Below, one piece after another: positions 7,613 through 12,652 of a stretch of 64,000 nucleotides of DNA. The stretch comes from a virus. Each line of letters starts with the position of its first letter. Within the stretch, counting starts at the first letter, position 1. The notes beneath the pieces were generated by a model. It was given only the letters and a program-made list of their open reading frames with translations. It had not been told where the DNA came from and did not search any database. The stretch covers positions 1 through 64,000 of IMG/VR virus record IMGVR_UViG_3300013772_000002; one strand, 5' to 3'. A program made the translations under genes and the position numbers.

Positions 7613-8134
7613 ATGAATCTCACCACGAAAGACATCGAGCGGTTTTGGTCGTATGTCGATGTACGAGAGTGTGACCAGTGTTGGTCGTGGACGGGGCATA
7701 TGACCCATGACGGTTATGGAGACATGAACGTCAAAGGAAAACATCTTCGTGTCGGTCGCATCGCATATTACCTCGAGTATGGCACGATCGATTCCAAGTC
7801 ACTTATTCGTCATTCATGCGACAACACATCCTGTGTCAATCCACGTCACTTACTTCAAGGGAATAAACTGCAAAATGCACAGGATATGATATCGCGTGGA
7901 CGTCAGTCGTCGGGAGAATGGTGTCCCTCCAAACCCAAACTCTCTCTCGAGATCGCTGCCGAGATCATCAATCGTCATGAGGGCGGCGAATCGAAACATG
8001 CGCTCGCAAGGTGCTTCGACGTAGATGTGAAGCAGATCATCCGCATCGTTCGTGGTGAGAGCTGGAAAGATGCCCGCATGCTTGCTTATGTCAGTCGCCT
8101 TGCTCAATCACTTGACTTGCCAGTCTTTCCATGA
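7613..8134 (+). CDS. HNH endonuclease with C-terminal HTH
   Basis: CWSWTG...GYG...IRHSCDNTSCVNPRHL motif; AAGGAG RBS; promoter at 7548. Confidence 0.88.
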   Translation: MNLTTKDIERFWSYVDVRECDQCWSWTGHMTHDGYGDMNVKGKHLRVGRIAYYLEYGTIDSKSLIRHSCDNTSCVNPRHLLQGNKLQNAQDMISRGRQSSGEWCPSKPKLSLEIAAEIINRHEGGESKHALARCFDVDVKQIIRIVRGESWKDARMLAYVSRLAQSLDLPVFP

Positions 8135-8900: not shown

Positions 8901-9491
8901 TTGATGATCGACGCGAGCGTTGGTAGGCGTGTCTTGGTTGCCTGTGAATTTTCGGGCATTGTACGAGACGCCTTCCTGTCTGTCGGTTGCGATGCTCTGT
9001 CCTGTGACTTCCTGCCTACCGAGAGACCCGGTCCGCACTACCAGGGTGACGTGCGCGATTTGCTCGGGGATGGTTGGAACCTAATGATCGCGCACCCGCC
9101 CTGTACCTATCTGGCGGTAAGTGGGGCGCGCTGGTTCAAGGATCGACGTGGCGAGCAGGCAGAGGCGCTGGACTTCGTTCGTCTCCTCATGGACGCACCG
9201 ATCCCGCGCATCTGTATTGAGAATCCGGTGAGCGTCATCAGTAGCGCGATCCGCCGTCCCGATCAGATCGTCCAACCGTGGATGTTTGGACATGGCGAGA
9301 CGAAAGCGACGTGTCTCTGGCTAAAGAACCTCCCGCCCCTCACGCCGACAAATGTTGTGGAGGGGCGGACACCTCGAGTGCATCTCGCATCGCCGGGACC
9401 AGAGCGATGGAAGGAGCGGAGCAGGACGCTTCCGGGGATTGCGGAGGCGATGGCGAATCAATGGGCAGCAGTAGAAATGAGAATTTCTTGA
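8901..9491 (+). CDS. Short phage DNA cytosine methyltransferase-like protein
   Basis: VLVACEFSG, HPPCT, IENP and RSRT..GIAEAMA motifs. Confidence 0.75.
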   Translation: MMIDASVGRRVLVACEFSGIVRDAFLSVGCDALSCDFLPTERPGPHYQGDVRDLLGDGWNLMIAHPPCTYLAVSGARWFKDRRGEQAEALDFVRLLMDAPIPRICIENPVSVISSAIRRPDQIVQPWMFGHGETKATCLWLKNLPPLTPTNVVEGRTPRVHLASPGPERWKERSRTLPGIAEAMANQWAAVEMRIS

Positions 9492-10267
9492 CTTCATCGT
9501 ACTACAACGATAATGGTATCACCCTCTATCACGATCGGTGCGAAGTCATCTTGCCGACGCTTCCTGACTGCAGCGTGGACATGGTTCTTGCTGATTTGCC
9601 TTACCAGCAAACGAGAAACACTTGGGACTCCGCCATCGATCTCGACTTCCTCTGGCCACAATATCGTCGCATCGTCAAGCCGAACGGCGCCATCATTCTT
9701 TTCGGTCAAGGGATGTTCTCTGCCGTCCTGATGATGAGCAATCCCAAAGAATATCGTTATTCCTTGATCTGGGAGAAAGATCGTCCGACCGGATTCCTCA
9801 ACGCCAACCGGATGCCGCTCAGGAGCCATGAGGACATCCACGTCTTCTATCGCTCCTTGCCTACTTACCATCCGCAGATGTGGCAAGGAGAGCCGCAGCA
9901 CAGCCGTGGTATCGGGGGCGGCGTCAACGCGAAGAAGACGACCAACTACGGCGCCTATACGAACGATCCTGAAGACCCGCGTGCCGGCAACACCTTGAAG
10001 CACCCGCGCTCGGTACTGCACTTCCCGAAGCCCCACCCGGCGAAGCATCCGACCGAGAAGCCGGTCGCTCTCTGCGCTTACCTGATCCGGATGTTCTCGA
10101 ATCCCGGTGACGTCGTTCTCGACAATACCGCTGGGATCGCGAGTACAGGCGTCGCCTGTCAACACGCGGGAGGACGGCGCTTTATCGGCATCGAGTGCGA
10201 CGAGGAATACTGCCAGATCGCCGTCGATCGTTTCGCCGTGCATAACCCGATGGAACGTTCGGCATGA
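9488..10267 (+). CDS. DNA methyltransferase, N4-C/N6-A (beta class)
   Basis: DLPY catalytic-like motif, HPTEKP, VVLDNTAG, FIGIE; TTG start overlapping the upstream TGA. Confidence 0.88.
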   Translation: MTSSYYNDNGITLYHDRCEVILPTLPDCSVDMVLADLPYQQTRNTWDSAIDLDFLWPQYRRIVKPNGAIILFGQGMFSAVLMMSNPKEYRYSLIWEKDRPTGFLNANRMPLRSHEDIHVFYRSLPTYHPQMWQGEPQHSRGIGGGVNAKKTTNYGAYTNDPEDPRAGNTLKHPRSVLHFPKPHPAKHPTEKPVALCAYLIRMFSNPGDVVLDNTAGIASTGVACQHAGGRRFIGIECDEEYCQIAVDRFAVHNPMERSA

Positions 10268-10974
10268 GTAAGCCAACACACATCGATCTCTTTTCGGGGA
10301 TCGGCGCCTTTTCATTAGCGGCGCGCTGGGCAGGCTTCGAGACGATCCTCCACTGCGAGATTGATCCGTACTGCCAGCGCGTACTCGAAAAGAACTTTCC
10401 GGAGGTGCCCATTCATGGAGATGTCCACACCCTTCGTAATGCCAGGTTCGCCGACCTTCTTACCGGCGGTCATCCCTGTCAACCCTTCAGTGGCGTCGGC
10501 GAGCAACGCGATTTTGCCGACGATCGCGACCTCTGGCCAGAAATGTTTCGCTGCATCACGGAGATACGACCGACATGGGTTGTTGCTGAGAATGTTGAAA
10601 GATTCTCTCGCGTTGGGCTCGATCGCACTCTCTCCGACCTGGAAGGAGCGGGTTACGCCGCAGGGTCGCTCGTATTTCCGGCTCTCGCTGTCGGAGCGCA
10701 GCATCGTCGCCAGCGGACATTCACTCTTGCCTACGCCGGTGGCAAGGGACTGGAAGGGAGCGCCCTCACGAGCAACGCAGAGCATTTGCAAGTACATCAG
10801 GACATTCTTTCCCGATACGACCGGCCGTCCGTACCCCGAGTACTTAGAGGCGGTCATGGGATTCCCCACGCTTTGGACCAAATTAGAGTGCTCGGAAACG
10901 CCATCGTCCCCCAACAATGTTATCCGATCTTGAAACTGATCGCGGATAACATTATCGAGGAACGCGCCGCATGA
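10264..10974 (+). CDS. C5 cytosine DNA methyltransferase, alpha chain (copy 1)
   Basis: DLFSGIG, GGHPCQ, ENV, QHRRQR and LGNAIVP motifs. Confidence 0.9.
   Translation: MSKPTHIDLFSGIGAFSLAARWAGFETILHCEIDPYCQRVLEKNFPEVPIHGDVHTLRNARFADLLTGGHPCQPFSGVGEQRDFADDRDLWPEMFRCITEIRPTWVVAENVERFSRVGLDRTLSDLEGAGYAAGSLVFPALAVGAQHRRQRTFTLAYAGGKGLEGSALTSNAEHLQVHQDILSRYDRPSVPRVLRGGHGIPHALDQIRVLGNAIVPQQCYPILKLIADNIIEERAA
10415..10933 (+). CDS. Overlapping-frame beta chain of C5 MTase copy 1
   Basis: GGAGGT SD at 10401, ATG at 10415; LPTPVA and PEYLEAVMGFPTLWT (motif IX-like). Confidence 0.7.
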   Translation: MEMSTPFVMPGSPTFLPAVIPVNPSVASASNAILPTIATSGQKCFAASRRYDRHGLLLRMLKDSLALGSIALSPTWKERVTPQGRSYFRLSLSERSIVASGHSLLPTPVARDWKGAPSRATQSICKYIRTFFPDTTGRPYPEYLEAVMGFPTLWTKLECSETPSSPNNVIRS

Positions 10975-11903
10975 GTGAACTTACTCACGTCGATCTTTTC
11001 AATAGTGCGCTCGGTTTGCCCGTACCACCAACGCATGTCGATCTCTTCAGCGGCATTGCCGGTTTTGCTCTTTCAGCATCTTGGGCTGGCTTCGAGACGA
11101 AGCTCTTTTGCGAGATCGATCCTTTCTGTCAGAAAGTGATCGCGAAGAACTTTCCCGGGGTACCGATCCATGACGACATTCGTACCCTTATGACCAGGAA
11201 GGAGGAGATGCCTAGTGGATTCAATGGAGCGATCGACCTCGTTACCGGCGGATTCCCGTAGCCTTGCCAACCTTACTCAAACGCCGGTAAAAAGCGAGGT
11301 ACCGACGACCCTCGTGATCTCTGGCCAGAAATGCGACGCGTCATTGCCGCCATCCAACCGCGCTGGGTTGTTGGTGAAAATGTTGAAAACTTCGTCAACA
11401 TGGAACTCGACCGGACGTGTGCCGACCTGGAGGGGGAAGGCTACGAAGTCGGGGAACCGCTTGTTTTCCCGGCTAGTGCAGTTGGAGCGCGGCATCTCCG
11501 TTACCGGACTATCGTTATTGCCCACTCCCGTCGCTTCGGACGCGACGACTGGCAGGATCATTGGTCGGGACGACACCTATCTGATTCGTCCCCATGCGTT
11601 GCCACGCAAGATCAATCGCATGGGTCAGAACGGCTCCGTCGGACTGGCGCGATTGGTGAAGATCGAGGAGGCAATCAGGCTAGGCAAGATGTCCAGGGAG
11701 CAGCCGATTTCGATCTCGGGACGCGACGTCCTTCGTTTGACCGAGGGTCTTGGGGAGTTGAATCCGGAATTCGCCGAGTGGTTGTTGGGGTACCCGACCA
11801 ACTGGACCGCATTAGGGCATTAGGGAATTCGATTTCGCCCTGGCAATTGTACCCCGTCCTCAAGGCGATTGCCGACGATCTGCGATTGGAGCGCGTTACA
11901 TGA
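10971..11903 (+). pseudogene. C5 MTase alpha chain (copy 2) interrupted by an in-frame TAG at 11259-11261 (pseudogene or recoded)
   Basis: Reads GGFP*PCQPYSNAG; ENV, RYR and LGNSI motifs continue in frame to 11903. Confidence 0.8.
11215..11823 (+). CDS. Overlapping-frame beta chain of C5 MTase copy 2
   Basis: GGAGG SD at 11201, GTG at 11215; LPTPVA and LNPEFAEWLLGYPTNWT. Confidence 0.7.
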   Translation: MDSMERSTSLPADSRSLANLTQTPVKSEVPTTLVISGQKCDASLPPSNRAGLLVKMLKTSSTWNSTGRVPTWRGKATKSGNRLFSRLVQLERGISVTGLSLLPTPVASDATTGRIIGRDDTYLIRPHALPRKINRMGQNGSVGLARLVKIEEAIRLGKMSREQPISISGRDVLRLTEGLGELNPEFAEWLLGYPTNWTALGH

Positions 11904-12652
11904 GTGAATTTACTCACGTAGATTTATGTTCGGGAATTGGTGGTTTTTCCTTGGCGGCATGGTGGGCTGGATTTCAAACTATCCTCCATTGTGAGATCGA
12001 TCCCTATTGTCAGAAAGTGCTGGCGAAGAACTTTCCGGAGGTACCAATTCATGACGACATCCACGCTCTTACCGGCATCTCCTCCGCCGACCTACTTACC
12101 GGAGGTCCACCATGTCAGCCATTTAGTAATGCCGGGAAGCGAGTCGGCACGGCAGATGACCGCCATCTCTGGCCAGAGATGTTGCGCATTATTGACGCAA
12201 GCCGACCCACTTGGTGCGTTATTGAAAACGTTGATGGTTTCACCGGAATGGCGCTCGATCTCGTCTGGTCTGATCTGGAAAGCGCGAACTACGAAGTCGG
12301 GGCGGTTGTATTTCCGGCTAGCGCCGTCGGTGCGTGGCATCGCCGCGACCGGCTTTGGGTTATTGCCCACACCCAAAGCGTCGGATGTGGATCGGGGCGG
12401 TCGTGGCGATCTCTTGCAAGCACTTCGGGGAAACAGCAACAAACACTTTCGACGCGCGAGACTCCCGACGGGCGAGAGTATCGCGTCGACCAGTGGACAT
12501 CCGAACCCAGTGTGGATCGAATGGTTCCAGGGCTACCCTCCGAACTGGACATATGTCGACGACGTGCCATCGGAAATTCGATAGTTCCGCAACAGGCTTT
12601 CCCCGTTCTAAGGGCGATCGCTGATAGCCTTCGATTGGAGCGCTCCGCATGA
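11900..12652 (+). CDS. C5 cytosine DNA methyltransferase, alpha chain (copy 3)
   Basis: DLCSGIG, GGPPCQ, ENV, HRRDR and IGNSIVP motifs. Confidence 0.9.
   Translation: MSEFTHVDLCSGIGGFSLAAWWAGFQTILHCEIDPYCQKVLAKNFPEVPIHDDIHALTGISSADLLTGGPPCQPFSNAGKRVGTADDRHLWPEMLRIIDASRPTWCVIENVDGFTGMALDLVWSDLESANYEVGAVVFPASAVGAWHRRDRLWVIAHTQSVGCGSGRSWRSLASTSGKQQQTLSTRETPDGREYRVDQWTSEPSVDRMVPGLPSELDICRRRAIGNSIVPQQAFPVLRAIADSLRLERSA
12051..12584 (+). CDS. Overlapping-frame beta chain of C5 MTase copy 3
   Basis: GGAGGT SD at 12037, ATG at 12051; LPTPKA and PNPVWIEWFQGYPPNWT. Confidence 0.7.
   Translation: MTTSTLLPASPPPTYLPEVHHVSHLVMPGSESARQMTAISGQRCCALLTQADPLGALLKTLMVSPEWRSISSGLIWKARTTKSGRLYFRLAPSVRGIAATGFGLLPTPKASDVDRGGRGDLLQALRGNSNKHFRRARLPTGESIASTSGHPNPVWIEWFQGYPPNWTYVDDVPSEIR

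Follow-up and report, generated by a model that had tools for sequence, protein, structure and literature searches.

The stretch of DNA considered here, which we call the window, comprises the first 64 kb of a 104.8-kb IMG/VR record, the source of which is a soil phage. At 10264-12652 it carries three tandem paralogues of C5 DNA methyltransferases, and the second of these is interrupted within its catalytic motif by an in-frame stop codon lying between two proline codons. The three copies belong to a cluster of five modification genes within 3.8 kb, the other two, both upstream, being a methyltransferase-like open reading frame (ORF) at 8901-9491, which has PPC and ENP motifs and no Pfam match, and an N6_N4 methylase at 9278-10267. 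The features of the locus are:

10264-12652, + strand: three tandem C5 DNA-methyltransferase paralogues, the copies being joined by ATGA overlaps
10264-10974: copy 1, in which motif IV reads GGHPCQ
10971-11258, + strand: upstream frame of copy 2, from motif I to GGFP, its last codon being the candidate take-off Pro (PF00145, E 8e-11; phrog_363, E 1.6e-23)
11001-11048, + strand: 48-nt in-frame extra segment at the 5' end of copy 2, repeating THVDLF before motif I (repeat spacing 755 vs 707 nt)
11215-11823, + strand: open +1 ('beta') frame across the site, the last ~100 codons of which (LLPTP...NWT) are methyltransferase-like (phrog_1008, E 7e-8 for 11500-11820)
11236-11300, + strand: window-specific predicted hairpin (arms ~11236-11250 and 11282-11300) with the take-off, stop and landing codons in its loop
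11247-11252, + strand: Gly-Gly codons GGC GGA, 3 nt upstream of the take-off codon, at the place of the G-rich, Shine-Dalgarno-like bias of the relatives
11256-11258, + strand: candidate take-off codon CCG (Pro)
11259-11261, + strand: in-frame TAG, the next base being C
11262-11264, + strand: candidate landing codon CCT, the Pro of the catalytic Pro-Cys
11265-11903, + strand: downstream frame of copy 2 with the catalytic Cys, motifs VI, VIII and X and the TGA at 11901-11903 (PF00145, E 1e-17)
11900-12652: copy 3, in which motif IV reads GGPPCQ

Read in the frame of the ATG at 10971, positions 11247-11270 give GGF, CCG (Pro), TAG, CCT (Pro), TGC (Cys) and CAA, with 96 codons before the TAG and 213 after it, TGA 11901-11903 being the next stop. 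The initial annotation had described CCG-TAG-CCT as an exact 6-nt insertion between Pro codons and had held the downstream motifs to be intact. Both statements are confirmed: by comparison with the GGHPCQ and GGPPCQ paralogues copy 2 has exactly two extra codons (6 nt) in motif IV, while ENV, the two motif-VIII arginines (HLRYR) and ALGNSI are all present in its frame, with no second lesion in 309 codons. The TAG is the sole break in what otherwise reads, in one frame, as a C5 DNA methyltransferase with its PF00145 match, motif I, the Pro-Cys of motif IV, the ENV of motif VI and motifs VIII and X; annotated 300-aa methyltransferases match the downstream frame at 47% identity over 91% of length. 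The arrangement around the stop is that of a candidate bypass site, in which the codons on either side of the gap, CCG and CCT, both specify Pro and could be read by the same tRNA, and in which the stop directly follows the take-off codon. Re-initiation in the frame of the NTG that the landing codon forms together with TG was considered and rejected, this frame being closed after 8 codons in the window.

The insertion also traverses a second frame. As stated in the initial annotation, the overlapping +1 frame reads R-S through the inserted codons and is left open by them. The same dual-frame layout is found in all three paralogues (3/3), with motifs I-VIII and X in one frame and a +1 frame open for 190-215 codons that ends in LLPTP...G[FY]PxxWT, the +1 frame matching phrog_1008 and the main frame phrog_363. 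Over the DNA shared with the +1 frame, the main frame matches phrog_363 and the annotated 300-aa methyltransferases. In two of the interrupted relatives described below (L028 and L030) the main frame itself is closed by ...EWLMGYPIGWT, the motif that in the window belongs to the +1 frame. The layout recalls that of M.EcoHK31I, where a different frame of the alpha gene encodes the beta chain (PMC2836561); the likeness is one of gene architecture and not of the stop, the +1 frames of the window being putative coding frames. Where the +1 frame stops and motif X starts, at 11811-11826, there is a tandem 8-nt repeat, CATTAGGG CATTAGGG; we rejected it as a second hop site, as the paralogues and relatives switch frame there without such a repeat, and it is most simply taken as codons for I-R-A-L-G-N. 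The 48-nt THVDLF segment at the 5' end is a feature of copy 2 only, copies 1 and 3 lacking it, and it may represent the 5' junction of a lost cassette or a recombination junction.

Could the stop be an artefact, or no stop at all? The contigs of two samples cover the site. One from run X1, possibly the source sample, shows 0 differences, as does one from run X2, a second sample of the same study, which spans 10751-11284 and contains the insertion, extending only 17-23 nt beyond it; runs X3 and X4 had no coverage there. The assembly error that had been listed as an alternative is contradicted by the presence of the insertion in both samples. The phage uses the standard genetic code, in which TAG is an ordinary stop: ORFs under code 11 occupy 90.7% of the 104.8-kb record, 29 of 100 of them end in TAG, and no tRNA gene is found in the whole record. 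Recoding of TAG does occur in some phages, and an amino acid might be supplied by an alternative code or a suppressor tRNA; given these figures, and the use of all three stops by the relatives, we consider such recoding, together with assembly error, extremely improbable.

The evidence for a wider class comes from related genes. A search of viral contigs with the pattern GGFP, T-R-R, PCQP recovered 32 contigs, all of them with a stop (TGA 13, TAG 11, TAA 8) and none with TGG. With the two codons ahead of the stop left free, the same genes came back together with two that have GGYP, the Pro still directly preceding the stop, and freeing the middle codon entirely returned the same 32 loci, again with a stop in all. 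With the middle codon free, species-representative genomes yielded five contigs with a stop in 5/5, the carriers being the cultured Muriventricola aceti H5_61 and metagenome-assembled genomes labelled Oscillospiraceae, Ideonella and Paceibacterota. The freer pattern GG-x-P-NNN-PCQP matched at least 120 metagenome contigs, and among the matches listed there were 68 TGA, 27 TAA and 25 TAG, x was always F or Y, and no sense codon (0 of 120) stood at the middle position. Among the matches listed with this codon free (32 viral, 5 genome and 120 metagenome) a stop is accordingly found in 157 of 157, and a Pro flanks it on both sides in every relative. Close gene pairs differ in the type of stop (TGA vs TAA) or in the Pro codon, the Pro-stop-Pro being kept. 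A scan for 9-nt inserts gave six loci, four distinct genes having Pro-stop-stop-Pro and a further one Pro-TAA-GGA-Pro; the double stops are TAA TGA or TGA TGA, and 193-304 codons are open downstream in all. These variants are on viral contigs L252, L274, L275 and L276 and on L255, their downstream frames being intact. Gaps other than multiples of three were absent from a scan restricted to GGG-TTC-CC prefixes.

After the stop the frame is open for ~190-530 codons where the contig allows, being shorter in 6 of ~85 complete genes among the matches listed, and no member has a start codon in frame on the way from the stop to the catalytic Cys. The Muriventricola aceti H5_61 prophage (L049, NZ_JAOQKF010000002.1) illustrates the organisation, with 262 codons, TGA and 213 codons, and with an embedded HNH-like domain. 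Among 120 listed relatives all 112 PCQ-bearing proteins read GGFPCQ, and none reads GGFPxPCQ. A blastn search of GenBank phages yielded uninterrupted methyltransferases only, including that of Bacteroides phage BS-TP4. The recurrence of P-stop-P in related phage methyltransferases, which the initial annotation had pointed to as a check on the hop, is thus strongly positive, and its occurrence in more than 150 independent contigs is more than chance would provide. Copy 2 is best explained, on the strength of these comparisons, as one of a widely distributed group of phage C5 methyltransferases with a stop and a second Pro codon inside the Pro-Cys of motif IV.

Within this class copy 2 stands apart. 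On both sides of the stop its nearest relatives are uninterrupted proteins of 60-70% identity. A scan of viral contigs for its closest relatives by peptide pattern gave at best 63% identity over 89 residues, a large protein search either 49% over 90% of the query or, over about half its length, 59-61%, and the exact-flank pattern around its site found no match. Nor does copy 2 have a related HNH gene nearby, such as the endonuclease that adjoins a MobA-type element. There is a free-standing ORF with HNH_3 and helix-turn-helix (HTH) domains upstream of the cluster (7613-8134, + strand), unrelated (E > 1) to the insert-linked HNH family. Copy 2 would be either a cassette remnant or an independent gain, in both cases without the nuclease.

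In the relatives the insert is closely associated with such a nuclease. An HTH and an HNH-like zinc domain sit in frame between motifs III and IV in about one quarter of the interrupted genes. In many others the HTH-HNH is encoded by an ORF of its own immediately upstream, and the embedded and free-standing forms are homologous (E 1e-8 to 1e-12). A related HTH-HNH lies within 1.2 kb in 69 of 97 interrupted loci (~70%; those with at least 900 nt upstream) as against 0 of 62 uninterrupted ones. One subclade (L021:4817-5554:-, L017, L035, L038 and L048-L050) has an HTH and CxxC...HH...CxxCH insert between motifs III and IV, and termination at the stop would there yield a fusion of a methylase N-lobe with a nuclease-like domain. 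The boundaries of the unit are suggested by the interrupted gene L024, which, compared at the protein level with nine uninterrupted alleles (P0121-P0132), shows 57-60% identity upstream of the stop and 95-98% downstream of it to eight of the nine (76% to P0127); P0121 represents 929 member sequences. The breakpoint of similarity in this protein-level mosaic coincides with the insert, which can thus be placed at the 3' edge of a unit comprising the HNH together with a substitute N-terminal segment. On a 239-row tree built from the core, no fewer than 16 changes are required to account for the interrupted state, and well-supported branches force three of these, which is the behaviour expected of a mobile element. 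The mobile-element scar that had been proposed as an alternative is thus right in part, since the relatives have the insert at the 3' edge of a cassette associated with an HNH.

Both halves of the interrupted relatives are under purifying selection. For the 96 codons after the stop the mean pN/pS is 0.25 (26 disjoint pairs of close interrupted genes), and for the 80 codons before it the pooled pN/pS is 0.12 (22 pairs), with pS up to 0.66. An earlier upstream value of 0.80, from 26 ungapped codons, was rejected as having non-homologous stretches mixed in. The initial annotation had named relaxed selection on the downstream frame as an outcome telling against a hop; the relatives show purifying selection instead. 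In several pairs identical upstream parts are joined to diverged downstream parts, so that the downstream signal is in part older than the insert. The upstream part, by comparison, is seen only joined to the stop and diverges under strong constraint, and since an upstream half lacking the catalytic Cys cannot methylate alone, it is this constraint that speaks most strongly for a working enzyme being made from interrupted genes. In the window coding resumes for 213 open codons with motifs IV-X, the selection being that measured in relatives; over the 50 codons after the stop copy 2 differs from its paralogues with pN 0.27-0.29 and pS 0.63-0.87, values that cover the time before its insertion too.

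Codon usage at the site was counted in 81 interrupted genes made non-redundant at 95% over a core of 110 residues. At take-off the codon is CCG in 36, CCT in 32, CCA in 7 and CCC in 6 (CCG or CCT in 68/81), and the landing codon is CCA in 43 of the 81 (CCA at take-off vs landing, Fisher 7e-10, uncorrected for shared ancestry). CCA makes up 28% of the Pro codons elsewhere in the same genes and 3 of 23 at the homologous Pro of close uninterrupted genes. This bias fits a tRNA(Pro) with U34 that would move from a wobble to a Watson-Crick pair, and this isoacceptor is reported to be shift-prone (PMC4519876). The second Gly codon is likewise biased, being GGG in 47 of 81 interrupted vs 2 of 30 uninterrupted genes (8e-7, again uncorrected for shared ancestry), so that a G-rich tract comes to lie 3 nt ahead of the take-off codon. 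The window has neither the Gly-Gly codons nor the landing codon favoured in the relatives, its GGCGGA being a rarer form (6 of the 81). The hairpin predicted for the window has a minimum free energy of -33.7 kcal/mol (z about -1.8) and is not conserved, its pairing in the relatives being no better than in shuffles. Around the site in the 81 relatives there is no conserved RNA structure or covariation (RNAalifold -1 kcal/mol), nor was any other conserved stimulator found there.

How might a ribosome pass such a stop? On reaching GGF-Pro it would hold peptidyl-tRNA(Pro) in the P site and face, in the A site, a stop followed by C, a context in which termination would be slow. The tRNA could then detach from CCG, the mRNA move by 6 nt and the tRNA re-pair with CCT, such that decoding would restart at TGC (Cys) and produce an enzyme with the canonical GGFPCQ, while those ribosomes that terminate would release a 96-residue N-terminal fragment. 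The insert may also shield the gene from the HNH nuclease of the cassette, as the T4 bypass element does against MobA. We assign a probability of roughly 0.6 to a natural, working Pro-to-Pro translational hop across the stop. The hop, as put forward in the initial annotation, where it might allow low or regulated production of the enzyme, draws its support from the recurrence of Pro-stop-Pro, from the double stops and from purifying selection on both halves. What is observed is the insert, its recurrence, its conservation at the codon level and this selection; the hop, its efficiency and its purpose we infer. A broader proposal, to which we would give an even chance, is that Pro, one or two stops and Pro constitute a minimal natural stop-hop, with re-pairing 6-9 nt on and no elaborate RNA signal, and form the business end of an HNH homing cassette, breaking the DNA target of the nuclease and leaving the protein unchanged, rather like an intron removed at translation; the window would then hold an orphan copy of an element present in many habitats and host phyla.

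The main rival explanation is that the main frame of copy 2 is simply broken, by a recent lesion or as the scar of an HNH cassette, and is tolerated or kept for its +1 product, the pattern in the family reflecting repeated cassette invasion of working genes. Several observations are in keeping with this. Copy 2 lacks close interrupted relatives, and the rows next to it in the tree are uninterrupted; it carries the 48-nt duplication at its 5' end; its insertion may be a lesion of recent origin; the +1 frame stays open through the site and has an end matching phrog_1008; and two intact paralogues flank it, so that its loss might be cheap for the phage. In the family, the mosaic alleles with identical upstream on diverged downstream parts are what recent homing would give, and 6 of ~85 complete relatives among the matches listed have short downstream frames. 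A scar, however, would not be expected to preserve Pro-stop-Pro when Pro codons change synonymously and one stop replaces another, with 0 sense codons among the 157 listed, and this persistence is not explained by a simple dead gene, such as the inactivated alpha gene suggested in the initial annotation. Moreover, the cassette-borne N-terminal part of the methyltransferase is under the strong purifying selection noted above (pooled pN/pS 0.12 at pS up to 0.66), and copy 2 retains all catalytic motifs. We regard a broken gene as unlikely.

All that the data show is that ribosomes must get past the stop, and ways other than a hop deserve attention. Pro before a stop and C after it make up the weakest termination context known in E. 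coli, and the window site, with a single in-frame stop, is of this type, so that a near-cognate tRNA might decode the stop to give GGFP-x-PCQ with two extra residues. Against such readthrough, two consecutive stops occur in four lineages, and across double stops readthrough would be extremely inefficient, a slightly longer hop not, which favours the hop. All three stops interchange, moreover, and with them the inserted residue would change. The position is never a sense codon among the 157 listed, though sense codons are one mutation away from each stop, and this, together with the lack of any GGFPxPCQ protein (112/112 PCQ-bearing proteins having GGFPCQ), suggests that a protein longer by two residues is not viable; readthrough is quite improbable. 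There could instead be a +3 slide, giving GGFPPCQ, although no natural GGFPPCQ appeared in the GGG-prefixed gap scan. Or the N-terminal part could be released and translation resume without initiation, giving a two-piece enzyme. We know of no bacterial mechanism for such a resumption, and, as noted above, the members have no start codon in frame from the stop to the catalytic Cys, while on the other side split C5 methyltransferases can assemble, as in M.EcoHK31I (PMC2836561). Taken together, these other routes past the stop strike us as very improbable.

The hop across Pro-stop-Pro would have a precedent in synthetic constructs. In E. coli, ribosomes can be made to hop over a stop from one matched codon to the other (Weiss, Dunn, Atkins and Gesteland 1987, via PMC5009743), and, as proposed for the phage genes, matched codons there flank a stop, 9 nt yield one amino acid, and the slowly decoded stop in the A site triggers detachment and re-pairing of the peptidyl-tRNA. 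Those sites are man-made and of low yield, whereas the phage insert is natural, occurs in more than 150 contigs within a catalytic motif and in some cases has a 6-nt gap (two stops). According to a 2016 review, natural examples of an in-frame stop-hop were not known at that time (PMC5009743); our own search of the literature found no publication on a natural methyltransferase Pro-stop-Pro, the systems found being the stop-hops, T4 gene 60 and the Streptomyces candidates.

The T4 gene 60 bypass with its MobA HNH cassette resembles the phage genes in having a take-off codon followed by a stop and a matching landing codon (bioRxiv 10.1101/2022.08.31.505936), and shares with the relatives an insert tied to an HNH gene and to a cassette-borne copy of an adjacent gene segment. 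The role described for the bypass in T4-like phages is protection from self-cleavage, and there are genomes in which it has outlasted the nuclease (bioRxiv 10.1101/2022.08.31.505936); the window appears to resemble the latter. The differences are that the gap in gene 60 is 47-50 nt vs 3-6 nt in the methyltransferases, in which no conserved stem-loop was found, that the target is a topoisomerase rather than a methyltransferase, that the HNH families differ, and that the methyltransferase gene is not two separately initiated ORFs. The candidates in terminase g6/7 of Streptomyces phage Hau3 also concern a short-distance bypass in a phage gene (PMC10732093), the junction peptide having been detected by mass spectrometry in E. 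coli with a UAA variant (PMC10732093). They differ in using a rare UUA take-off codon or its replacement, a 5' stem-loop and a Shine-Dalgarno element, in being out of frame and in belonging to another gene family.

The +1 site of prfB (RF2) has a G-rich Shine-Dalgarno-like tract, a 3-nt spacer, a shifty P-site codon and a stop followed by C. The relatives share this layout of tract, 3 nt, shifty codon, stop and C, the Shine-Dalgarno likeness being a codon bias only; prfB shifts by +1 onto an overlapping codon, while a 6-nt hop is proposed for the phage genes.

Natural bypassing is known from very few cases, and the conserved 6-nt hop, if true, would be the simplest natural bypass element. The interrupted genes are called as two fragments or as pseudogenes, such that inventories of phage methyltransferases are undercounted, and the cultured carrier, the prophage of Muriventricola aceti H5_61, provides a usable experimental system. 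If the hop is true, ribosomes of many bacterial phyla would skip a stop with little beyond Pro-stop-Pro, and the association with the HTH-HNH family would constitute a second, independent pairing of a homing nuclease with a bypass. Such a second pairing would support the idea that bypass evolves so that selfish DNA can sit inside essential motifs.
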